Shown: positions 1,955 through 15,223 of the stretch, piece after piece
How positions within the stretch are numbered: the first letter of the stretch is position 1
Layout: each line of letters begins with the position of its first letter
DNA from: a virus
Virus record (IMG/VR): IMGVR_UViG_3300020424_000002
Coordinates: 1 to 64,000 of that record
Strand: one strand, 5' to 3'
DNA length: 64,000 bases
Made by a program: the position numbers and the translations under genes
The notes under the pieces: model-generated
Told to the model about the DNA's origin: nothing
Seen by the model: the letters and a program-made list of their open reading frames with translations, nothing else
Databases searched by the model: none

Positions 1955-3232
1955 CTATGATATATTTATAGTACCACCCATTCCACTATGATTTGGACAA
2001 TAATAGTATAAAGTACTATGATTAAAACCAGCATCTACTATTATTTGTGTATAAGCACCAGATGAGCCTGAAGTTCCGACATAATTTATATATCCATTAG
2101 GCCCTAACTGAGAACCACCATTATGTGTCCCATCACTGGTTGTAGAGAATCTTATAGGATGACCACTATTTGATGTATCTGATTGTGAGAATCTATATGT
2201 TGTCCCTCTAACTAAACTAAATGTTTGTTGTTGTACACCATTGTAGTAGTATGCATTACCTGTTTCACCATATCCACTTTTAGAATCAACTGTAATTTGA
2301 TAAGTAGTAATATCTTGTCCACCAGAACTACCATCGTCATCTTGTGATTGTCCACCACCAGTTGGTATATTAAATTGGTCTTCTGGTGATTGAGAACCTA
2401 TAGCACCTATTGTTGTTCTATCAGTTAGATAGTCTGTATTATTACCATCAAAAAAGTTTATTGTTTCAGTTATATTTAAAGGGCTGGTCTCTGGGTTTGC
2501 ACTTGTTGGATTAGGTATTACTGATATTTCACTTTGTCTTCCAGCTGCACTATCTACCTGTCCATCATCTGTAATGTATGTTCTTGCACGAACATCTCTA
2601 ATAATCTCTGATTTGCCAATAGAACCATATAGATATGTTTTCATTTCAAAGTTCATTGTCCAAATAATTACTCTTCGAGATTGAAAATCACCCTCATATT
2701 GGTCATCATAAGATACATCCTGTAATACAATAGGGACATCTCTTTTTTCACTAGTGCCTGGCACTGTGGTCATTGTAACTGTAAAGTCTGGTGTAAAGAA
2801 AGGTAATATCTGTTCTACTATCTGTAATGCATCTTCGGTATTCTTTGCCATTGCATATAAACCAAATTGTATATTATAAGGAACTGGTGCAAACTGTGTT
2901 TTTAAAACTGTATTATCCGATGCATCTTGTAGTTTATATTGTTTTAATTTACCAAGTTTTCTTTCTGCATCGTAGTTTAAACCTGTAATATCAAATGCAA
3001 GTCTTGGTAAAGTCATTGCAACTCTTGATGTAGAACTGTCCATTAAGTCTGCAGCTTGGTCTAATCTTGCAATGAATTTTTGTTTTGGGCCATAGGATAG
3101 TGGAACTCTTATGTTTTGTGTTTGAGTTCCATCTGCATTATCTCTTTGAATATCAATCTCATTGAACATTGTACCAAAAACTGATACTGCTCTTTTGATT
3201 GCTTCATGATAGAAATGTGATTTACCTAACAT
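1955..3232 (-). CDS. gp15: Tail sheath stabiliser/terminator gp15 with an extra C-terminal cupredoxin-like domain
   Basis: HFYHEAIKRAVSVFGTMFN, VPLSYGPKQKF, PVPYNI, QIVEQILPFFTP. After a low-complexity linker there is a domain with HPIRFSTT...YYYCPNHSGMGG. Confidence 0.93.
   Translation of the reverse strand: MLGKSHFYHEAIKRAVSVFGTMFNEIDIQRDNADGTQTQNIRVPLSYGPKQKFIARLDQAADLMDSSTSRVAMTLPRLAFDITGLNYDAERKLGKLKQYKLQDASDNTVLKTQFAPVPYNIQFGLYAMAKNTEDALQIVEQILPFFTPDFTVTMTTVPGTSEKRDVPIVLQDVSYDDQYEGDFQSRRVIIWTMNFEMKTYLYGSIGKSEIIRDVRARTYITDDGQVDSAAGRQSEISVIPNPTSANPETSPLNITETINFFDGNNTDYLTDRTTIGAIGSQSPEDQFNIPTGGGQSQDDDGSSGGQDITTYQITVDSKSGYGETGNAYYYNGVQQQTFSLVRGTTYRFSQSDTSNSGHPIRFSTTSDGTHNGGSQLGPNGYINYVGTSGSSGAYTQIIVDAGFNHSTLYYYCPNHSGMGGTINIS
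1963..1970 (-). promoter_or_regulatory. T4 late promoter (gp16)
   Basis: TATAAATA about 22 nt upstream of the gp16 ATG. Confidence 0.65.
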
Positions 3233-5493: not shown

Positions 5494-6213
5494 TTATTTA
5501 GGGAATCTTATGTTTCCACTGTCTGGACAAACTTCAAACACTGGTATATCGTTTACCTTTCTTGCTTCTATTTCTGGATGATTGTTTAGTTCTGTCTGGT
5601 CACCTTTCCAAGTAAATGAATTATTGAATGCAATCGAAATCCTATCAAAGTCTGTTTCTAATGGTTCTACATAATGTTGCATTGCAGAAGGAAATAATAA
5701 TACATCACCCTCTCTTGGTTCTACAACAAAGTTATCTCTAGTTCTTGCAGTTACATGTATGAAGTTTGACATATGTTTTGTTTGACCACTTAAAAATTGT
5801 AAAACTCCAGAACCCCTAGTTTCTTCTGGAACAGAAATATAAGCAACACCACTATACCAACAGCCTGGATGTGTATGCACATTATTATATCCATGTTGAT
5901 AGTTTATGTTTACCCAATAATTACCATGGTCTAAAATAAAGTTTTCATGATGTTCTCCACAATGAAATGGGAATACTTCTTTATTAAAAACTTCTTCTAC
6001 ACCATTAAGTAAAGATTGAAACATTGGTCTATCATTTACACCATCTACAGACTGCCAACCAGCACCATTATTAGACCTTCTTCGTCCTATAGGGTCTTCC
6101 TTTCTCATGGTATAGCATTCTTTTTTCATTGCATCTAGTTGTTCTTGAGAGACTAAACCTAAATCAAGTAAATTTGCTTTAAACACATGCCATGAAAACA
6201 TTGGTAAATACAT
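5494..6213 (-). CDS. 2OG-Fe(II) oxygenase (TIGR02466-like)
   Basis: WVNIN...NVHTHPGCWYSGVAYISVP, PREGDVLLFPSAMQHYV, DRISIAFN. Confidence 0.88.
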   Translation of the reverse strand: MYLPMFSWHVFKANLLDLGLVSQEQLDAMKKECYTMRKEDPIGRRRSNNGAGWQSVDGVNDRPMFQSLLNGVEEVFNKEVFPFHCGEHHENFILDHGNYWVNINYQHGYNNVHTHPGCWYSGVAYISVPEETRGSGVLQFLSGQTKHMSNFIHVTARTRDNFVVEPREGDVLLFPSAMQHYVEPLETDFDRISIAFNNSFTWKGDQTELNNHPEIEARKVNDIPVFEVCPDSGNIRFPK

Positions 6214-7088
6214 TATGAATACTCCTTTCTAGTTTTGAATTTTTTTGCATAATATGGTTCAGAAACTTTATTTTTAATATCTTCCCTTTGATTCATTTCC
6301 TTTAAATCACCTTTTATATCTGTTTCAAATTTTTTATTAATTTCTTCTTTAGTTAAATATGTAATTTTACTTTTCCAAGGATATCTAACAAAAGGTACGA
6401 TTTGTACCAGTGGTGTACCTTTAGAAATTATAAAAGATTCATCTACTTTAGGATAAAAAATTAAAATATTATTTGTAGTTATCTGATTAAACTTATCAGT
6501 ATCTATAATACCTTGCCATGTAGACAAATATGGATTATCAAAAAGAAAAGGGTCAAGATAATAACAAGATGTACCTTTGGGAGTTTTTACCAAAAAATCC
6601 ATTTTAAATTTAAGTTGCATCTTGTCATCTCTACTCATTCCTTTTAGTTGCCTTGCTGGATGACCGCCGGGCCTAGATAACATATCAGTTAATTCATGTA
6701 AATCAAGTTTATTAGTTTTAATATAATCTATTGCAGCTTCTGTTTGATTTTCTTTTACTAATGTTTTAATATAAGAAAGTTTTTCTGTCGACATATCTTT
6801 TAGTGCAAAGGATATAGACACTGGTTCACCATGATTACCTTTACTTAACAAAACTAAAACTGTATGTCTATTTCTAATAAGATACCCCATAGATAACCAA
6901 TCATGCATAGATGGACATTTTTTAATAGTATCTATTTCATTACCACCAAAATCTTTAATTATTGTTGGTAGTTTTTTATACCATTCTGGTTTTACTTTTT
7001 TTGCTGGAACTGGTTCAAATAAACTATTTTCAGTGTCTATAACACACTGAAATTCTATTTCCATTTCTTTTATTGGACATTGTTCCAT
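6213..7088 (-). CDS. Conserved phage protein (DUF6065-like / dUTPase-like beta fold)
   Basis: PEWYKKLP, TIKKCPSMHDWLSMGY, GIIDTD, IISKGTPLVQIVPF; a family that I recall often accompanies oxygenase clusters in marine phages. Confidence 0.6.
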   Translation of the reverse strand: MEQCPIKEMEIEFQCVIDTENSLFEPVPAKKVKPEWYKKLPTIIKDFGGNEIDTIKKCPSMHDWLSMGYLIRNRHTVLVLLSKGNHGEPVSISFALKDMSTEKLSYIKTLVKENQTEAAIDYIKTNKLDLHELTDMLSRPGGHPARQLKGMSRDDKMQLKFKMDFLVKTPKGTSCYYLDPFLFDNPYLSTWQGIIDTDKFNQITTNNILIFYPKVDESFIISKGTPLVQIVPFVRYPWKSKITYLTKEEINKKFETDIKGDLKEMNQREDIKNKVSEPYYAKKFKTRKEYS

Positions 7089-7258
7089 AATCGCTCGTGT
7101 AAATAATATAGTATAAGTTTTATTATAAAGTCAAAAGTCATGATTGCACCAGCAACCTCAACTGAACCTGTAAGGACATAACCTATTAATCCTGTAGTAA
7201 CTGTTGCAAGTATTCTCCATGAAAATGCTTTTGCAATTGACTTACTTTGTGAGTCCAA
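7070..7258 (-). CDS. DUF2061-like small membrane protein
   Basis: SIAKAFSWRILAT...KLILYYLHERLW. Likely TTG start at 7258 after AGGAG (the track starts at 7306). Confidence 0.8.
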   Translation of the reverse strand: MDSQSKSIAKAFSWRILATVTTGLIGYVLTGSVEVAGAIMTFDFIIKLILYYLHERLWNNVQ

Positions 7259-8030
7259 GCTGTCTCCTAATTTCTGTTGCAGAAATTGATTCAGTCTCTT
7301 TATCAAAAGATTCTTGTTCTATTTTATAACCTACATCTCTTCCATAAGTTATATTGACAATGTTTGGTACTTTTTGTATAATATAATGCACATTCTCTTC
7401 ATATCCTTCACCCAGTAAAAACATTTTTATGTTTTGTTTTACTGTTTTAAAATCAAAAGGATTCTTTTTACTGTTCTTCATTGCACGAATCATAATACAA
7501 ACTTGACCTGTTTTATCATAACATCTTTTAAATAATGCAAGATGACCATCATGAAAAGGTTGAAACCTACCCAACATTTGTGTAGTTGGTTTATTAATAT
7601 CAAATCTTCTGTTCTCTGCAAGTAATTCTCTTGCAATGACTTCGGAATGTAATTCACCATTTTGGTCTTCTACCCAATAGTCAACTTCATTTTTTAAAGG
7701 TCTTTGGAATGCTTTATTTGTATCTGCATATCTACCTTTTTCTATAGTATCCATAAAGATAATATAATCTGGGTTTAAGATTTGTCTTCCTTGAGTAAAA
7801 GGACAAACAAAATCCATAATTGCAAAAGGTTTATCGGAATCTCTGCATAGGTCTTTCATTCTATGCACCTGTCTGAGTCTACCTTCTTCTGAGAAATCCC
7901 AATCATCATGTTGGGCTCGGATTGCATCAGCATTGAAATGGTCTGCATCTAAATGTTCAAGTAGACATTTAGAAATGTAAGTCTTTCCACTGCCAGGCAA
8001 TCCAAAAATTAAAATTGTTTTTGTTTTCAT
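7242..8030 (-). CDS. Adenylyl-sulfate (APS) kinase-like domain fused to an HxGH nucleotidyltransferase domain
   Basis: P-loop GLPGSGKT, HFNADAIR..DWDFSEEGR, DFVCP; C-terminal GRFQPFHDGH, YGRDVGY, ISATEIR. Confidence 0.82.
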   Translation of the reverse strand: MKTKTILIFGLPGSGKTYISKCLLEHLDADHFNADAIRAQHDDWDFSEEGRLRQVHRMKDLCRDSDKPFAIMDFVCPFTQGRQILNPDYIIFMDTIEKGRYADTNKAFQRPLKNEVDYWVEDQNGELHSEVIARELLAENRRFDINKPTTQMLGRFQPFHDGHLALFKRCYDKTGQVCIMIRAMKNSKKNPFDFKTVKQNIKMFLLGEGYEENVHYIIQKVPNIVNITYGRDVGYKIEQESFDKETESISATEIRRQLGLTK

Positions 8031-8038
8031 ACTAATAC

Positions 8039-8866
8039 TTATTGTTCTTCCCAGAGACGAACTTCATCTCCACGAACAACCATACTTGTTCTATATGGAA
8101 ATTGATTTTCTACATTGTAATCTGCATCTGGGCCTGGATGTCTATGAGTCATTGCACCATTCATAATCACTAATCTATTTGGTTTGTATTTAACTCTACC
8201 TATTTCATGAGCCCCTTCATCTTCTGGTATTCCAGAGTATTCTTCTGCATGACTATGGTATTCACTATTGTAAAAAATTAAATCTCCACCCCAATCATCT
8301 TTCCATTCTTTTTGGTCATAATAAAGAAATGATAAATTATTTAAACAATCATCTCCTAATCCTGTATCTTCGTGTACAGTTCCATCTTGTCCTTTTGTTT
8401 GTCCATTAAATCCACAATATTGAAATTTAACCCAATCAAAATGAAAGTCTTGTCTTAATTTGTGAATAAACCAATCTATCATAGAATTTCTGTAACCAGC
8501 ATTTTTTGGTGATATAGTATTTTGTTTCCACTTTGATTGATTTTTCCATCTATCACTATTTAATGCTCTTTTTTCTGCCCACCATTCTGGACTTTTTGTT
8601 TTTGGCTCCCAACCCCTATCTTTTATATTAATGTAAATAGATTCACCCCAATATAAATGTCTCATTTTATCATTACGAATTACTCTATTTTGTCTACCCC
8701 ATTTTGTAGTATTAAATCTCATTTCATACCAAGAATCATGAATACTTGCTGGTAAATAATTATCAATTACCCAGATTTGTTTAAAGGGTAAACTAGGAAT
8801 AGGTTTAGGTTTTTGCAAGAATTGAATATCTATAGGTTGCATTAACCATTCGTAATGGTTTGACAC
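8039..8866 (-). CDS. 2OG-Fe(II) oxygenase (prolyl-hydroxylase-like)
   Basis: NGQTKGQDGTVHED (HxD), W..DWGGDLIF, YKPNRLVIMNGAMTHR, YRTSMV. Confidence 0.85.
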   Translation of the reverse strand: MSNHYEWLMQPIDIQFLQKPKPIPSLPFKQIWVIDNYLPASIHDSWYEMRFNTTKWGRQNRVIRNDKMRHLYWGESIYINIKDRGWEPKTKSPEWWAEKRALNSDRWKNQSKWKQNTISPKNAGYRNSMIDWFIHKLRQDFHFDWVKFQYCGFNGQTKGQDGTVHEDTGLGDDCLNNLSFLYYDQKEWKDDWGGDLIFYNSEYHSHAEEYSGIPEDEGAHEIGRVKYKPNRLVIMNGAMTHRHPGPDADYNVENQFPYRTSMVVRGDEVRLWEEQ

Positions 8867-9504
8867 TAAACTGACCTCTTATCCTCACCGATGTCTTCTT
8901 GTCCACCATTAATATCTAAGGTATCAGAACTTTTATCGAATCTATCGTCCGCCCAAGAAGTTTCATAAAAAGTATCTTTACTTGGTATAGATGGCAATTG
9001 ATTTTCATAAAACTCGTAATCTTTTAAATCTATTTCAAGTGTTTGATTTATTTCTTCTTTTAATCTATAGTAAACACCATTTATAAAATCCATCCAATCT
9101 AAAACTCTTCTTCCAATTTGTCTTCTTGGGTCGTTTGACATTTCTCTAGATGCAATTACAAGTTGTGCTGTATTTTTAAATCCAACTTCTTCGATATTAC
9201 TTTGTAGGTGTGAAAGTCTTTCTTCGACTATATCTTCAAGGTCTTCAATTATTTGTTTTTGCATAGTTATACTTGCAGGCGGGTCACATAATCTAATATA
9301 TTCTTCTATTTCAGAAATGTGTTCTTCACTTAAAGATAAGGTTTCTTCATTTAAAACATAGTCGGTTTGATTATCAAAAGGACAATAAAATAAAACATCG
9401 TAATCAAATGAGAATTGTGGTTTTTGTGTTTTTTCATAGTTCCAACGAAGTCCTTTTTCATTGGTTATATGTAACACATTGTTGTCATCATACACTAATA
9501 ACAT
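8866..9504 (-). CDS. Hypothetical protein, possible tail-fibre assembly/chaperone-like
   Basis: Directly downstream of the repeat fibre gene, with RBS GGAG. The segment GF.N..Q....S.DPRRQ.GR.V.DWMD...LP resembles proteins that follow tail-fibre genes. Confidence 0.5.
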   Translation of the reverse strand: MLLVYDDNNVLHITNEKGLRWNYEKTQKPQFSFDYDVLFYCPFDNQTDYVLNEETLSLSEEHISEIEEYIRLCDPPASITMQKQIIEDLEDIVEERLSHLQSNIEEVGFKNTAQLVIASREMSNDPRRQIGRRVLDWMDFINGVYYRLKEEINQTLEIDLKDYEFYENQLPSIPSKDTFYETSWADDRFDKSSDTLDINGGQEDIGEDKRSV

Positions 9505-9542: not shown

Positions 9543-11141
9543 TTAAGGCCAGGGTTTATTCAAATCACCATCCCATGTAGATACTGGTCTAGTTGCTGGT
9601 CGAGTCGATGGTCTAGTTGCTGGTCTAGTTGATGGTCGAGTCGATGGTCTTGTATTTGTTTGTTCAAAACTTGTAGGTCTATTAATTGTTTGCTCAAAAG
9701 TAGCAGGTCTACTGTTTTGTAGTTGTGCTGGTCTCGGTATTGTTTGTTCAAAACTCGTAGGTCTAGAAATTGTTTGCTCAAAGCTTGTAGGTCTACTAAT
9801 AGTAACTTCAAAACTTGATGGTCTTGGAGTTTGGAAATTAGTAGGTCTGTTAATAGTTACCTCATAAGAAGTAGGTCTATTAATGGTTACCTCATAAGAA
9901 GTAGGTCTTGGTATTGTTTGTTCATATGAAGGCGGTCTATAATTTTGTATTTGAAAATTAGCAGGTCTGTTAATAGTTCCTTGAGTTTGATAATTTGCTG
10001 GTCTATTAATAGTTTGGGTAGTTTGATAATTTGCTGGTCTAGTCCCTTGAGTCTGATAATTAGCAGGTCTATTAATAGTTTGTTCATAAGAAGAAGGTCT
10101 ACTATTTTGTATTTGAAAATTTGTAGGTCTACTATTTTGTATTTGATAATTAGCAGGTCTACTATTTTGTATTTGATATGATGGTGGTCTATACGCTTGT
10201 ATTTGAAAATTAGCAGGTCTAGGATTAGAAATCTGGTAAGTACCAGGCCTAAAAGCAGTCACTTGGAATGATGGATTTGTTAAACCAAATTTAGGATTAT
10301 AACTTCCAGCTACAGTTTGTTGATAGGATGCTGGTCTAGTCCCTTGAGTCTGATAAGAAGTAGGTCTTGGCAACGATTGAACTTGATAATACTGTGGACG
10401 ATAACCAGTAGTTTGAAAATTTGTAGGTCTACTCCCTTGAGTCTGATAATTTGCTGGTCTACTCCCTTGAGTCTGATAAGTAGTTGGTCTTGGTATAGTC
10501 ACTTCATAACTTGTTGGCCTAGGATTCGTTATCTGATAAGTTGTAGGTCTAGGATTAGTAATCTGAACATTATATGATGTTGGTCTAGGATTAGTAATCT
10601 GAACATTATATGATGTAGGTCTAGAACCTTGAGTTTGGAAATTAGTAGGTCTGTATATTGTTACTTCATAAGAAGCAGGCCTATTAATTGTTTGTTCATA
10701 AGAGCCAGGCCTAGGAATAGTTTGCTCAAAACTTGATGGTCTACTATTTTGTAATTGAGAAGGTCTAGGAATAGTTTGTTCAAATGATGAAGGTCTATTG
10801 ATTGTTTGTTCAAAACTTGATGGTCTATTAATAGTAACTTCAAAACTTGTAGGTCTAGGTGTTTGGAAATTCGTTGGCCTAGGTATAGTCACTTCAAATG
10901 AAGAAGGTCTATTAATTGTTACCTCAAAAGGTTGTTGAAATGGTTGCTGAAATCCCTGTTGAAATGGTTGTTGAAATGGTTGCTGAAAAGGTTGTTGTAC
11001 CTGTATTGTACCTGTTTGAAATTCCCATCCTGTAGGAGTTTTTCTTTTTACATCAACGACTTTCTTCCACCCAGATGGAGTTTTGACTCTCCATCCTGTA
11101 GTGTCATTCCATCCCGCTGGGGTTTTTACTTTTGAACTCAT
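9543..11141 (-). CDS. Arg-Pro repeat fibre/adhesin with mirror-symmetric repeat architecture (putative giant beta-hairpin)
   Basis: N-terminal 3x K-T-P-x-G-W motif, 6x QQPF, 40 RPxx[FYL] units, 6x RPST, C-terminal WDGDLNKPWP; directly downstream of the 1349-aa fibre. Confidence 0.8.
   Translation of the reverse strand: MSSKVKTPAGWNDTTGWRVKTPSGWKKVVDVKRKTPTGWEFQTGTIQVQQPFQQPFQQPFQQGFQQPFQQPFEVTINRPSSFEVTIPRPTNFQTPRPTSFEVTINRPSSFEQTINRPSSFEQTIPRPSQLQNSRPSSFEQTIPRPGSYEQTINRPASYEVTIYRPTNFQTQGSRPTSYNVQITNPRPTSYNVQITNPRPTTYQITNPRPTSYEVTIPRPTTYQTQGSRPANYQTQGSRPTNFQTTGYRPQYYQVQSLPRPTSYQTQGTRPASYQQTVAGSYNPKFGLTNPSFQVTAFRPGTYQISNPRPANFQIQAYRPPSYQIQNSRPANYQIQNSRPTNFQIQNSRPSSYEQTINRPANYQTQGTRPANYQTTQTINRPANYQTQGTINRPANFQIQNYRPPSYEQTIPRPTSYEVTINRPTSYEVTINRPTNFQTPRPSSFEVTISRPTSFEQTISRPTSFEQTIPRPAQLQNSRPATFEQTINRPTSFEQTNTRPSTRPSTRPATRPSTRPATRPVSTWDGDLNKPWP
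9579..10997 (-). repeat. Coding tandem repeat array (mostly 24/30/36-nt units plus terminal 12-nt units)
   Basis: Recurrent plus-strand ggtct (Arg-Pro codons) with mostly 30-nt period; 12-nt gttgaaatggtt-type and ggtcgagtcgat/ggtctagttgct units at the two ends. Confidence 0.92.
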
Positions 11142-11173: not shown

Positions 11174-14100
11174 CTATGAGTATGTTATCCAGATATCACC
11201 TACTGCTCCATCTGAACTGCCTGGCGCAGAACTATGTATGAATACATTTCTCATTGCTTTTGCACTTGCACCAATTGTTGTATAACTTGTTGTTGCAGCT
11301 CCTGTGAATGCAGATGTTCCACTTACTGCTAAACTACTTAATGTACCAACACTTGTAATATTAGTTTGAGCTGCAGTTTGTATTGTACCTGTTACATTAC
11401 CAACTAAGTTACCAGTAATATTACCAGATGAACTAATTGAACCACAATCAACAAGGTCAGCTGCAATGTCTGCTCTAGTAATTGTTAAGTCACCACTTGA
11501 TGCACCTGTAAATGAACCTGTTCCTACTATAACTCTGTCATGTGATTCATCCCAACCTATAAACACATTTGAAGAACTTCCTCTTTCGAGAACAATACCA
11601 GAATCACCAGAAGGTGAACCAGAGTTACCTGTTCCAAGTTCTATAAGTTGGTCTTCAATAGTTGTGTTTGTTGCACTGTTGGTTACTGTTGAACCATTAA
11701 CTGTTAAGTTTCCTGTGACTACCACATTACCACTTGCAGTAATATCAGTTGCAGCTATATCTGCAAAGGTTACATCTGAGGTTGTTGATACTGCCTGTCC
11801 AATAGAAACTGTTGGAGTTGCACCCTCTGAACCAGAACCAGATACAGATACACCAGTTCCACCAGAAAGACCAGCAACATAGTTACCAGAAGTTTCTGAA
11901 CCAAGTGCAATATCATCTACTGCAAAGTTAAGTTTACCACTTGCATCATCGTAAGTAACTGCAATATTTGTTTCTGTATTTGATGATACCATACCACCAG
12001 CAACATCTTGAACTGCTTCTGTAAAGTCTGATACTGCACCACTTGTAATACTAATGTCTACATTAGATGCACTTGTTACTCTACCTTTTGAATCTACTGC
12101 TACTTGAGCAACACTGTCTGCATCACCATAAGTTGCAGCTGATACACCAGAGTTTGCAAGTGTAATTGGTAATGCAACATTACCTGTTCCATCAAATGAT
12201 TGTGCTGAGTCTGTAGTTGCATCTCCTGTTACTGTAAAGTTTCTTGAACTTGCAAGTGCTGTTGCAGATGCAGCGTTACCAGTTGTACTTCCAGAAGAAC
12301 CAGATACATTACCTGTGATATTTGCAACTAATGTACCTACTGCATATCCTGTTGCAGTAGTATCTACTGTTGTTGAAGGTACTGTTTGTGTATCTGCAAA
12401 TAATCTAAATGTATTATCTGTAGATGCATCAAAGAATAAACCACCATATTTTGCTGTCCCACCTTCTACATACTTACCATAAAAACCAAAGTCTGTTGAG
12501 TTTCCTGTATTACCAGAAGTAAATCCTTGGAAGTTTGAATCTGTTGTTGTTGAACCTGTTTGTGTTGTAGTACCTGTAACTGTCAAGTTACCACTAACTG
12601 TTAAGTTATTTCCAATAGTTACATTGGATGGTAATCCAACTGTAACAGTACCAGAACTTTCTGAGACATCTACTTCTTGAGATGTTCCAGAGAATGTAAG
12701 TGTATTTCCTAGTGCAATTGCAGTTGAGGCTGAACCATCGGATACTGTTATACTACTGTTTGAAAGTTTACTATTTGCAATAGAACCTGCTAACATACTG
12801 TTTTCTACAGTACCAGAACCTATTGTCAATGCAATACTAGTATTACCTAGGTCTGTCATAACTCCAGAACCAGTTACATCTCCTGTGTAAGATAGTGTTG
12901 GGTCGTTTACATTGAAGTCTAAAGTACCATCTGAGTCTTCATAGGTAACTGAGATACCACTTTCTGTATTAGATGATACCATTCCACCAACTACATCTTG
13001 AACTCTTTCTGTAGTATGGTAGAGGTTACTTGACCCCTCGGATAAGTTGTCTGTGTTAAATCCAGAAATACTTGTTACTAAATCGATAGTTCCATCACTA
13101 TCTTCATAAGTTGCAGTGATACCTGTTTCAGTATTTGAAGTGAACATTGCTCCTACAGTGTCTTGAATTACTTCTGATAGGTCTATATTTGAAGAACCAT
13201 CGAATGAAACACCATGAATTGTTCTTGCAGTTTCTAATGCAGTTGCAGTTGCAGCGTTTCCTGTTGTATCTTGGTTAAGTGTTCCAACTGTAAAATCTAA
13301 AGTACCATCTGCATCATCGTATGCAACTGTAATACCACTTTCGGTATTAGATGTTACCATTGCACCTACGATATCTTCTACAGACTCAGTAAGGTCTGTA
13401 ATAGTTGATGCAGTTGTACTTACTACTAAATCGATTGTGCCATCGTCATCTTGATATGTTGCACCAACACCTGTTTCAGTATTACCAGAGAACATTGCAC
13501 CAACAATGTCTTGTACTCTTTCTGCATTTATTGTTACATCACCAGATGATACAGTAAAATCTGTTCCATCAAATGTTGCAATACCTTTGTTTGTTTCTGT
13601 TGCATCTTCTACAGATATAGTTGCAGTTGAACCTTCACCCTGTGTATGAGATACATCAATACCTTCACCAGCAGATATATCTAATAGATAATTACCAGTT
13701 GTATCTGTTCCTAATGCAACCGAGTCAGCTGCAATTGTAGATGATATGGTTAAGTTCCCTGTTCCATCAAAAGTACCAGAACCAGTTACATCACCACTCA
13801 ATGCAATTACTCTTGAATTTGCAAGTGCAGTTGCTGTATCAGCATTACCTTCTAAGTCTGCAATTAATTTACCTGTTGAATGTCCTGTTCCACTTGTATT
13901 AACTGTAGTTGTAGGTTCTGATTGGTTTCCATGAAACAATCTAAACTTACTTGATTCAGATGCATCCCATAGTAAACCAGCATATTTTGTGGTTGAACCT
14001 TCAACATATTGACCATACAAACCGAAGTCTGTTGCATTTGCAGCGTTATCTTTTGCAACTTTTACTGAACCATCTGCTACTTCTAAAGTAGTAGATGATA

Positions 14101-15223
14101 CTGTTGTTGTACTTCCTTGTACTGTAAGGTTACCAGATAGAGTTAAATTGGCTGCACCAACATCTCCTGTTACTGTTAAATCGTTTCCAATAGTTACATC
14201 ATCTGGTAATCCTACTGTTACTGTTGCAGTTTCAGAACCAGAACCAGATACTTCAATTTCATTTGAAGTTCCAGAGATTCCAGCAACATAGTTTCCTGTT
14301 GTGTCTGTTCCTAGTGCAACACTGTTAGCTGCAATTGTTGTAGATATAGATGTATTTCCTAGGTCTGTCATTGTTGCAGAACCAGTTACATCTCCTGTCA
14401 AAGAAATAGTAGGGTCATTCACATTAAAGTCTAGAGTACCATCTGAGTCATCATAGGTCACTCCTATACCACTTTCTGTGTTAGATGATACCATTGCACC
14501 AACGACATCTTGAACTCTCTCAGTCGTATGATATAGGTTTGTTGAACCTTCTGTTAATTGGTCTGTGCTTGGATTTTCACCTATGTGAACATTTCCACCC
14601 ATACCACTGTGGTTTGCACAATAGTAATAATGTGGATTCATTGCATCCATTTCGAAACACACTTCTACATATGCACCAGATGAACCTGCTGTTCCTACTT
14701 TATTATAGATAGTATATCCAGAAGACATTTCTGAACCACTACCATGTGTTCCATCACTGGTTGTAGAGAATCTTAAAGGATGTGATGCATTAGATGAATC
14801 TGATTGGTCAAATCTGTAAACAACATTAGGAGAAAGTTTTGCTGTTTGTTGTGACCCACCATCTAATAAAAACTTACCACCACTTACTGTGACTACTACT
14901 TTGTGATAATATGGTGCAGTTGTATTGTTTAATTGTTGTTCTACTGCAAGGTCGATAGTTCCATCACTATCTTCATAACCTACAGTTATATTGGTTTCAG
15001 TGTTAGAACTAAACATAGCTCCCACTGTATCTTGAATGAATTCTGCACCTACTGTTGCACTAAATGTACCAGATGAATCATCATATGAAAATGATATACC
15101 TGTATGTGTTCCAGCACCGAACAGACTTGAAATCTGGTCTTGTATCGCTTCAATAGCACCTGTAGAGTCTAGTTCTCCAGATGCATTCAAAAGGTCTGCA
15201 AGATATCTTGCTTTTGTTGGCAT
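11174..15223 (-). CDS. Long tail fibre protein (modular repeats, cupredoxin-like insert)
   Basis: G/S/T/D-rich; ~8 copies of QD.VGAM.SSNTE.GI.V.Y.DSDGT.D; ATALA..R.I...GD.TG repeats; YYCANHSGMGG insert; C-terminal SSAPGSSDGAVGDIWITYS. Confidence 0.88.
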   Translation of the reverse strand: MPTKARYLADLLNASGELDSTGAIEAIQDQISSLFGAGTHTGISFSYDDSSGTFSATVGAEFIQDTVGAMFSSNTETNITVGYEDSDGTIDLAVEQQLNNTTAPYYHKVVVTVSGGKFLLDGGSQQTAKLSPNVVYRFDQSDSSNASHPLRFSTTSDGTHGSGSEMSSGYTIYNKVGTAGSSGAYVEVCFEMDAMNPHYYYCANHSGMGGNVHIGENPSTDQLTEGSTNLYHTTERVQDVVGAMVSSNTESGIGVTYDDSDGTLDFNVNDPTISLTGDVTGSATMTDLGNTSISTTIAANSVALGTDTTGNYVAGISGTSNEIEVSGSGSETATVTVGLPDDVTIGNDLTVTGDVGAANLTLSGNLTVQGSTTTVSSTTLEVADGSVKVAKDNAANATDFGLYGQYVEGSTTKYAGLLWDASESSKFRLFHGNQSEPTTTVNTSGTGHSTGKLIADLEGNADTATALANSRVIALSGDVTGSGTFDGTGNLTISSTIAADSVALGTDTTGNYLLDISAGEGIDVSHTQGEGSTATISVEDATETNKGIATFDGTDFTVSSGDVTINAERVQDIVGAMFSGNTETGVGATYQDDDGTIDLVVSTTASTITDLTESVEDIVGAMVTSNTESGITVAYDDADGTLDFTVGTLNQDTTGNAATATALETARTIHGVSFDGSSNIDLSEVIQDTVGAMFTSNTETGITATYEDSDGTIDLVTSISGFNTDNLSEGSSNLYHTTERVQDVVGGMVSSNTESGISVTYEDSDGTLDFNVNDPTLSYTGDVTGSGVMTDLGNTSIALTIGSGTVENSMLAGSIANSKLSNSSITVSDGSASTAIALGNTLTFSGTSQEVDVSESSGTVTVGLPSNVTIGNNLTVSGNLTVTGTTTQTGSTTTDSNFQGFTSGNTGNSTDFGFYGKYVEGGTAKYGGLFFDASTDNTFRLFADTQTVPSTTVDTTATGYAVGTLVANITGNVSGSSGSTTGNAASATALASSRNFTVTGDATTDSAQSFDGTGNVALPITLANSGVSAATYGDADSVAQVAVDSKGRVTSASNVDISITSGAVSDFTEAVQDVAGGMVSSNTETNIAVTYDDASGKLNFAVDDIALGSETSGNYVAGLSGGTGVSVSGSGSEGATPTVSIGQAVSTTSDVTFADIAATDITASGNVVVTGNLTVNGSTVTNSATNTTIEDQLIELGTGNSGSPSGDSGIVLERGSSSNVFIGWDESHDRVIVGTGSFTGASSGDLTITRADIAADLVDCGSISSSGNITGNLVGNVTGTIQTAAQTNITSVGTLSSLAVSGTSAFTGAATTSYTTIGASAKAMRNVFIHSSAPGSSDGAVGDIWITYS

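Follow-up and report, generated by a model that had tools for sequence, protein, structure and literature searches.

A marine T4-like phage protein with mirrored, complementary repeat arms is predicted to fold as one long beta-hairpin

A 532-amino acid (aa) protein built from two mirrored arms of short repeat units was studied in the first 64 kb (the window) of IMGVR_UViG_3300020424_000002, a 146-kb IMG/VR virus record that is about 81% complete. The protein (P0001), referred to here as the hairpin protein, is encoded by the open reading frame (ORF) at positions 9543-11141 on the minus strand. Its arms match each other unit by unit in length and are complementary in unit type. This protein is probably a virion fibre made of a single chain that folds back antiparallel on itself at an N-P-K-F-G turn. 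It is very basic (isoelectric point (pI) 10.7, net charge about +34) and contains 0 histidines and 0 cysteines, while the G+C content of the window is about 34%. The source is an uncultured marine T4-like myophage near the pelagimyophage group described in PMC7029224. When gp6 was compared, the nearest cultured phages were Methylophilales phage Melnitz (43.5%) and the Pelagibacter phages HTVC008M and Mosig (about 41%). Tail fibres were not identifiable in the pelagimyophage genomes (PMC7029224).

Units were defined as the pieces obtained by cutting after each Arg-Pro, and the final 10 aa of the N-terminal piece were taken as unit 0. This procedure reproduced the unit lengths given in a preliminary description of this DNA. 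The lengths in arm 1 are 10 10 8 10 10 10 8 10 10 10 10 12 12 10 10 10 10 10 11 10, and those in arm 2, read in reverse order, are 10 10 8 10 10 10 8 10 10 10 10 12 12 10 10 10 10 10 10 10. The centre between them consists of 29 aa and contains YNPKFGL at aa 281-287 (nucleotides (nt) 10281-10301). Equal length is found in 19 of the 20 mirror partners and the sole mismatch is an 11:10 pair, which is the 1-residue bulge that had been claimed. The preliminary description had proposed shuffling as a check on whether the symmetry could arise by chance. When the 40 units of the window protein were permuted, only 1 of 200,000 permutations reached 19 of 20 matches, placing the mirror beyond chance.

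Mirror partners in the window protein are also related in type, as described before. NFQTP lies opposite QLQNS both times, and QTQG-type units lie opposite units of the QIQN/QITN type. EVTI lies opposite EQTI or EQTN in nine of the ten Glu-type pairs, and the remaining pair is EQTI:EQTI. Outside the arms, the six QQ(P/G)F tetrads near the N-terminus and six RPxx tetrads near the C-terminus were found, and all of the residues singled out for cross-strand contacts (F52, F72, R78, R269, Y302, F492, R498, and R518) are as claimed.

Homologues were gathered in two scans, of viral and of metagenome contigs, respectively. This gave 45 loci (designated L), all marine and 47-95% identical, with 41 complete ORFs when the window's own is included. 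Perfect length mirrors are present in 32 of the 41 and comprise 18 different length strings. For the majority of these, a mirror would result from just 1 in 10^3 to 1 in 10^7 arm-2 orderings of the same composition. L003, L004, and L033 have the mirrored string 10 10 8 10 8 10 8 10 8 10 8 10 10 12 12 10 10 12 12 12, L005 has four 8/10 alternations followed by five 12-mers, and both arms of L006 and L008 have three 12-mers rather than two. The window protein and its 95% twin L007, which comes from an independent assembly, share one 11:10 bulge. Every mirrored protein has equal arms of 20 (rarely 21) units and 198-206 aa, although 8-mers number between 1 and 7 and 12-mers between 0 and 5. Arm length is conserved, and unit order is not. 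These strings support the proposed rule that insertions and deletions are paired between the arms. The preliminary description had named unpaired repeat indels in homologues as its own refuting check, and its prediction passed.

The partners were said to be complementary rather than identical, and across the homologues this holds at the mirror position and is lost when the partner is shifted by one unit. Of the 292 mirror pairs between 10-mers of the EVTI and EQTI types (V:Q), 260 are complementary and 32 are alike; at displacements of one to three units, about 50% are complementary. An x-Q-x-Q-N-S type 8-mer lies opposite an x-x-Y-Q-T-x type in 88 of 89 pairs, and a Y-N-Y-Q-I-Q-N type 12-mer lies opposite a Y-Q-T-Q-G type in 80 of 88. 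For 10-mers of the QIQN-like and QTQG-like kinds (I:G), 82 of 93 pairs are complementary. Overall, 522 partners differ at the key position, compared to 415 +/- 9 after arm-2 units were shuffled among slots of equal length. A unit change between homologues coincides with a change in the mirror partner with a phi of 0.74, compared to 0.15-0.27 at shifted partners. Such paired changes resemble those on the two sides of an RNA stem. The pairs that are not complementary are Q:Q in 25 cases and V:V in seven. An excess of Q:Q would be expected if two bulky residues clash and two polar residues are tolerated, and it would offer a path for compensatory change. The pairing runs along one anti-diagonal, unit k with its mirror partner, as expected for a long hairpin. 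The physical pairing of the two arms has as much support as sequence analysis can give.

We considered whether the mirror could have arisen at the level of DNA. The preliminary description had stated that the DNA is not itself an inverted repeat, and 0 inverted repeats were found in it; a DNA palindrome was therefore rejected as the cause. It had also stated that tandem duplication does not generate this symmetry. This stands for duplication as a general cause, but needs to be softened for the window's own lineage. A direct repeat of 253 nt with 77% identity (9646-9898 and 10678-10930) covers the outer eight units of both arms and had gone unnoticed in the preliminary description, so direct duplication contributed there. 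In unit types, this block is nearly its own "reverse complement", and one duplicated block can thus serve either arm. In relatives of the L005 type, one arm is rich in EVTI and the other in EQTI; these arms are not direct repeats, yet they form perfect complementary mirrors. Since such dissimilar arms keep the mirror, duplication was rejected as the sole and general cause. The same observations bear on the idea that the mirror has no structural meaning and is a by-product of repeat duplication, or of chance, in a low-complexity and possibly disordered protein. The direct repeat speaks for this idea, as do the 8-10-10-10-8 length string of the repeated block, which is itself palindromic, and an uninformative full-length AlphaFold run. 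We find the idea scarcely credible given the L005-type arms, the 18 different mirrored strings, the loss of complementarity at shifted registers, and the permutation result for the window protein alone.

Units are missing from one arm only in seven of the 41 ORFs (L015, L019, L023, L026, L039, L040, and L043). Outside the gap, five of the seven are 95-99% identical to another locus of the family. The best match of L023 is L017 (99.2%) and that of L040 is L033 (95%), and both L017 and L033 are perfect mirrors. L039 matches L026 best (99.3%); L026 itself lacks units in arm 1, and its own best match is another one-arm variant. In L043, arm 1 is fused to arm 2; this ORF is 91% and 86% identical to L021. 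The more diverged variants are L015 (87% to L001) and L019 (75% to L025). Contigs shorter than 2.5 kb carry four of the seven. All seven may reflect the collapse of near-identical tandem units during short-read assembly or, alternatively, recent real deletions.

The structure of the central 170 aa (residues 200-369), which comprise seven units, the tip, and seven units, was predicted using AlphaFold2 with 29 homologues. The mean predicted local distance difference test (pLDDT) score was 87, and four of the five models were above 80. The model was judged from its strand string, pLDDT, and structural neighbours. It has eight strands, a loop at model residues 79-92, which is the only non-strand stretch, and eight further strands. 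Each modelled unit, including arm-1 units 13-19, consists of a 7-residue strand at positions 2-8 followed by an R-P-x break. By prediction only, both arms are beta-strand with a reversal between them, and the model is a single long two-stranded hairpin for which no counterpart of similar length is known. Together with the pairing data, it supports the earlier proposal of antiparallel arms with a turn at NPKFG. No significant structural match to the central model was found with Foldseek (PDB, BFVD), VIA-align wide, or the ESM Atlas. The weak neighbours were the phi29 collar and the pore stems of lysenin, aerolysin, anthrax PA, and binary toxin, which are the longest hairpins in the PDB. These align around the centre of the model, with VIA-align placing model residues 46-123 on the lysenin stem hairpin, and the ESM Atlas matches are likewise centred on the tip. 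A trimer prediction with three copies of the central 170 aa scored 0.02 against a mark of 0.42, which speaks neither for nor against oligomerisation.

The strand limits are identical in both arms (positions 2-8). Unit boundaries would therefore be flush, with position a facing L-a and Pro facing Pro, so that i+j would be about 568 (569 within the bulge). In the pooled data, mutual information peaks at positions 5:5', 5:7', 7:5', and 7:7'. Among the variable positions of V:Q pairs, covariation links 1 and 2 to 8' (z 11.9 and 5.1) and 8 to 1' (z 5.7). This, too, would fit the flush register, although the sequences are not independent of one another. The preliminary description had placed the arms at i+j=570, or 571 inside the bulge, with each Arg facing an aromatic residue. 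The strand limits and the covariation favour 568/569, two residues away. In either register, the odd positions form one face, with an aromatic residue at 3, Val/Gln/Ile/Thr at 5, Ile/Asn/Gly at 7, and Arg at 9. The even positions form the other, with Ser/Asn at 2, Glu/Gln at 4, Thr/Gln at 6, and Pro at 8 and 10. In a beta-ribbon, prolines of the same parity would take sites where the NH points away from the partner strand, which is a known form of free-edge protection.

Another possible explanation is a compact two-layer body, in which each arm forms a beta-meander sheet and the two sheets pack face to face, unit on mirror partner. This would likewise demand equal strand lengths and complementary inward residues. 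Strands of 7 residues separated by breaks of 3 would, taken alone, fit a meander, and unit-length steps of +/-2 residues keep the in/out pattern of the strand in either architecture. However, the nearest structures are long single hairpins about the centre of the model, not meander sheets. From general knowledge, a residue before proline prefers the extended conformation, which makes x-R-P a poor tight turn, and prolines of the same parity (8 and 10 of a 10-mer) fit edge protection in a ribbon. We regard the two-layer body as improbable.

The arms could instead pair antiparallel between chains. The rod would then be about double the length, N- and C-termini would both occur at either end, and the "tips" would meet at its middle. 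This arrangement would satisfy all of the mirror and covariation evidence equally, and the AlphaFold monomer model cannot discriminate against it. It is still unlikely in our estimate. N-P-x-x-G strongly favours a local turn, and in 29 sequences the P-K-F-G motif has invariant P, K, and G. In the window protein and three relatives (L006-L008), the tip has a short form of 29 aa, and the repeats reach this centre, which reads as a continuation of the hairpin closed by a turn. Most relatives have long forms of 50-61 aa. Those of L001-L005 and L009-L037 carry a conserved P-x-G-P-W element, which the window's lineage lost or never had. Tip length thus varies freely without a mirror constraint, as expected for a loop or knob, and variation from 29 to 61 aa is more readily explained in a loop at the end of a hairpin than halfway along a two-fold rod. 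Finally, a phage fibre normally has one attachment end, which the N- and C-terminal pieces would form jointly if the chain folds back.

We favour the single-chain hairpin. The chain would run out for about 225 residues, reverse at the invariant N-P-K-F-G, and return antiparallel to itself. The domain with three K-T-P-x-G-W repeats and the C-terminal peptide would lie together at one end, with the variable tip at the other. Each arm would consist of 20 short beta-strand units ended by Arg-Pro, and arm-1 unit k would pair with arm-2 unit 19-k (0-19 counted from the outer end) of the same length and complementary type. At the central inward positions, one partner would be bulkier (Val, Ile, Tyr) and the other polar or small (Gln, Thr, Gly). 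The irregular order of unit lengths and types would act as a register code, as only one alignment of the arms is fully matched. We infer pairing within the chain, a physical length of at most about 70-75 nm when fully extended, possible oligomerisation, attachment via the termini, and a host-contact or whisker role. The two-stranded ribbon of up to about 75-80 nm and the fibre-tip role put forward in the preliminary description are candidates only.

Several points weigh against this explanation. The pairing rule would have exceptions if the seven one-arm variants truly exist and are functional. Covariation fits pairing within and between chains alike, and AlphaFold in monomer mode always reads it as within-chain. 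The central hairpin is a prediction, and full-length AlphaFold2 with a 7-sequence alignment gave a pLDDT of 30.6. A free two-stranded ribbon of 70 nm is without precedent and may be too unstable without oligomerisation. The lack of the P-x-G-P-W element in the window's lineage weakens the case for the tip as a receptor-binding site. Also, no cultured phage carrying the protein was found by megablast and tblastn among 50,697 phage records, a result that may owe something to the low-complexity filter and to leaving out the window's own record.

The features of the gene and its two neighbours are listed in Table 1. The N-terminal domain has a mean pairwise identity of 0.95 among 28 homologues, with most residues invariant. 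Short beta-strands are predicted in it at low confidence, and its K-T-P-x-G-W motif is absent from all other ORFs of the window. This domain probably anchors the protein to the virion or to another fibre. The C-terminal peptide would adjoin it if the chain folds back. The termini (first 48 and last 13 residues) are 95-97% conserved across the family, while the arms drift. This looks like the usual fibre pattern of a conserved attachment end and a variable shaft or tip. Both tetrad runs are constant in number across the homologues, so covariation is silent on whether the tetrads pair.

Table 1. Parts of the hairpin gene and its immediate neighbours in the window
Feature	Residues	Window positions	Strand	Remarks
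212-aa acidic ORF		8866..9504	-	pI 4.3; directly downstream of the hairpin gene in every locus extending there, 44-97% identity
C-terminal 13 aa and stop codon		9543..9584	-	W-D-G-D ... K-P-W-P; mean pairwise identity 0.97
Five (S/A)TRP tetrads	500-519	9585..9644	-	read from sequence
Arm 2	300-499	9645..10244	-	20 units, 200 aa
Tip	271-299	10245..10331	-	invariant P-K-F-G turn motif; short form
Arm 1	70-270	10332..10934	-	20 Arg-Pro-delimited units, 201 aa: 2 of 8, 15 of 10, 1 of 11, 2 of 12
Six QQ(P/G)F tetrads	49-72	10926..10997	-	last overlaps arm-1 unit 0; opposite the C-terminal xTRP tetrads; read from sequence
N-terminal domain	1-48	10998..11141	-	three K-T-P-x-G-W repeats
1349-aa acidic fibre protein		11174..15223	-	pI 4.05; PHROG tail-fibre and structural-protein matches; always directly upstream of the hairpin gene

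The hairpin protein would be a phage fibre with fold-back topology, which is a known kind, in a new architecture. Among phages, the nearest example of the fold-back principle is the needle at the tip of T4 gp37 (PDB 2XGF), reportedly described by Bartual and colleagues in 2010, in which each chain is said to go to the distal end and return. Both are beta-structured fibres (by prediction for the hairpin protein) from a T4-like tail-fibre module, with a fold-back chain and both ends proximal. In contrast to the hairpin protein, the gp37 needle is a knitted trimer of roughly 15 nm with His-x-His iron sites and no repeat-unit code. Seven iron sites lie along its length (PMC6957217). The hairpin protein has about 200 residues per arm in Arg-Pro units of 8, 10, or 12 aa with mirror complementarity, and lacks sequence similarity to gp37. 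His-x-His was not found in the family; the window protein has no His at all, and some relatives have single His residues in 12-mers. Membership of the gp37 needle type was rejected because His-x-His sites are lacking, no PHROG family or PDB sequence matched, and the Pfam matches were compositional only.

Three other systems share some of these properties. Outside phages, the nearest principle is that of the SMC and MukB arms, in which a long antiparallel coiled coil forms within one molecule and folds at a hinge (PMC2141774); the hairpin protein would be the beta-strand counterpart of these arms. In these proteins as well, one chain folds back, the termini meet at one end with the hinge or tip opposite, and the arms match in length. 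Unlike the hairpin protein, which is predicted to be all-beta, has Pro every 8-12 residues, and lacks an enzymatic domain, they consist of an alpha-helical coiled coil with an ATPase head. The pore-toxin stems and the phi29 lower collar (5gaq, 5ec5, 3j9c, and 6qz9) are long two-stranded antiparallel hairpins, but have about 35-50 residues per arm and occur only as staves of multi-chain barrels; the matches to them are weak (Z about 2, E value at least 0.02). The arm of the hairpin protein, at about 200-225 residues, is about five-fold longer, repetitive, and not obviously in a barrel. T4 fibritin (wac) has a comparable genome slot, a similar length (486 vs 532 aa), and, like the hairpin protein, a conserved N-terminal anchor. 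However, fibritin forms a trimer of parallel coiled-coil chains with a foldon at the C-terminus, and the hairpin sequence cannot form a coiled coil. Identity of the hairpin protein with fibritin was rejected given the all-beta model and the Pro every 8-12 residues. The Fibritin_C model (PF07921) had no match in the 146-kb record, but control genomes were also silent.

We are evenly balanced on a broader proposal, that the protein represents a new fibrous class, the "beta-duplex": a single-chain hairpin of about 60-75 nm with arms of about 200 residues, in which a small alphabet of complementary units holds the register and evolution is mirrored and compensatory. If the single-chain hairpin is true, it would be the longest known beta-hairpin by about five-fold. 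It would also be the first protein in which natural sequences reveal compensatory evolution of repeat units bound by a pairing code. It would bear on how a repetitive beta-sequence avoids register slip and aggregation, through irregular lengths, large/small complementarity, and prolines at would-be free edges. It would also bear on the genetic fixing of fibre length and on the design of long, thin, programmable beta-ribbons. For the abundant marine T4-like phages, whose tail fibres are poorly annotated (PMC7029224), it would add an unrecognised fibre type.

Sequence searches against PHROG (E value <=0.001), Pfam, NCBIfam, and the PDB gave no family for the hairpin protein, with compositional matches only in Pfam. 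Keratin_B2 (PF01500), which describes Cys-rich penta/decapeptide repeats in keratin-associated proteins of mammals, was the sole Pfam model over its whole-protein cut-off (31.6 vs 28.7 bits), but no single stretch passes. Since the hairpin protein lacks cysteine, this match is compositional and reflects a shared decapeptide periodicity, and the model was rejected. A beta-solenoid or pentapeptide-type repeat was also rejected; no Pfam repeat family matched, and length and type constraints specific to the mirror are unexpected for a solenoid. A word-indexed protein search returned only a 374-aa fragment-like match and one unrelated TPR protein. The former (P0002), encoded on a 1.7-kb contig, has Pfam domains of peptidase M16 and is 96% identical to the query over 9% of the latter; a chimeric or mis-called ORF is the probable explanation. 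When 1.84 billion representatives were searched with a profile, fragments of the family and many unrelated eukaryotic tandem decapeptide proteins were retrieved, and a second mirror family was not found. The preliminary description knew of no phage fibre of this design. Literature searches on hairpin and ribbon fibres and on decapeptide repeats likewise found no description of it or of mirror-complementary repeat units.

Among other proteins returned, P0004 (3333 aa) and P0015 (2985 aa) matched the family profile with E values of 8e-45 and 5e-18, and have a direct 38-aa super-repeat without a mirror. They combine Ig-like N-terminal repeats with long Arg-Pro-ended arrays of units of about 10-18 aa (G-R-P-H-A-F-A-H-A-E-F type), and are possibly another family of Arg-Pro repeat fibres. 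An arthropod-like cuticle protein (P0017) has R-P-V-S-F-Q-Q-T-S-A decapeptide repeats that resemble the phage units, most likely by compositional convergence.

The genes surrounding the hairpin gene form a T4-like structural module with gp6-like and gp7-like baseplate wedge proteins, several tail-fibre proteins, and very large structural proteins. Downstream are homologues of gp13 (adaptor), gp14 (head closure), gp15 (sheath stabiliser), and the large terminase. The gene order is a 412-aa fibre, the 1349-aa fibre, the hairpin gene, the 212-aa ORF, a 2-oxoglutarate (2OG)-Fe(II) oxygenase, a kinase/nucleotidyltransferase-like gene, a 291-aa ORF, and a second oxygenase, and it is constant in every locus that reaches far enough. 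The hairpin gene thus stands at the end of the tail-fibre genes, five genes before the gp13/gp14/gp15 homologues. In T4, wac lies between the fibre gene 12 and genes 13-14-15. The slot of the hairpin gene is comparable, which makes a whisker-like role as much a candidate as one in the tail fibres. The 1349-aa fibre is a possible attachment partner of the hairpin protein.

No genes of the block diverge more than the hairpin gene and the 212-aa ORF, which vary in step with each other. The 212-aa ORF has no match in Pfam, PHROG, or NCBIfam. From synteny and charge, its product is a candidate chaperone of the basic hairpin protein or a candidate partner in its assembly.

The two 2OG-Fe(II) oxygenase genes occupy positions 5494-8866 (minus strand), between the hairpin gene and gp13, together with a P-loop kinase/cytidylyltransferase-like fusion. 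The order of this oxygenase/kinase block is kept in all loci, and modification of a fibre rich in Pro, Arg, and Asn is a candidate role only. The gp15 homologue, at positions 1955-3232 (minus strand), matches gp15 over residues 4-251 and has an extra C-terminal domain (about residues 317-423) that matches tail-fibre PHROGs.

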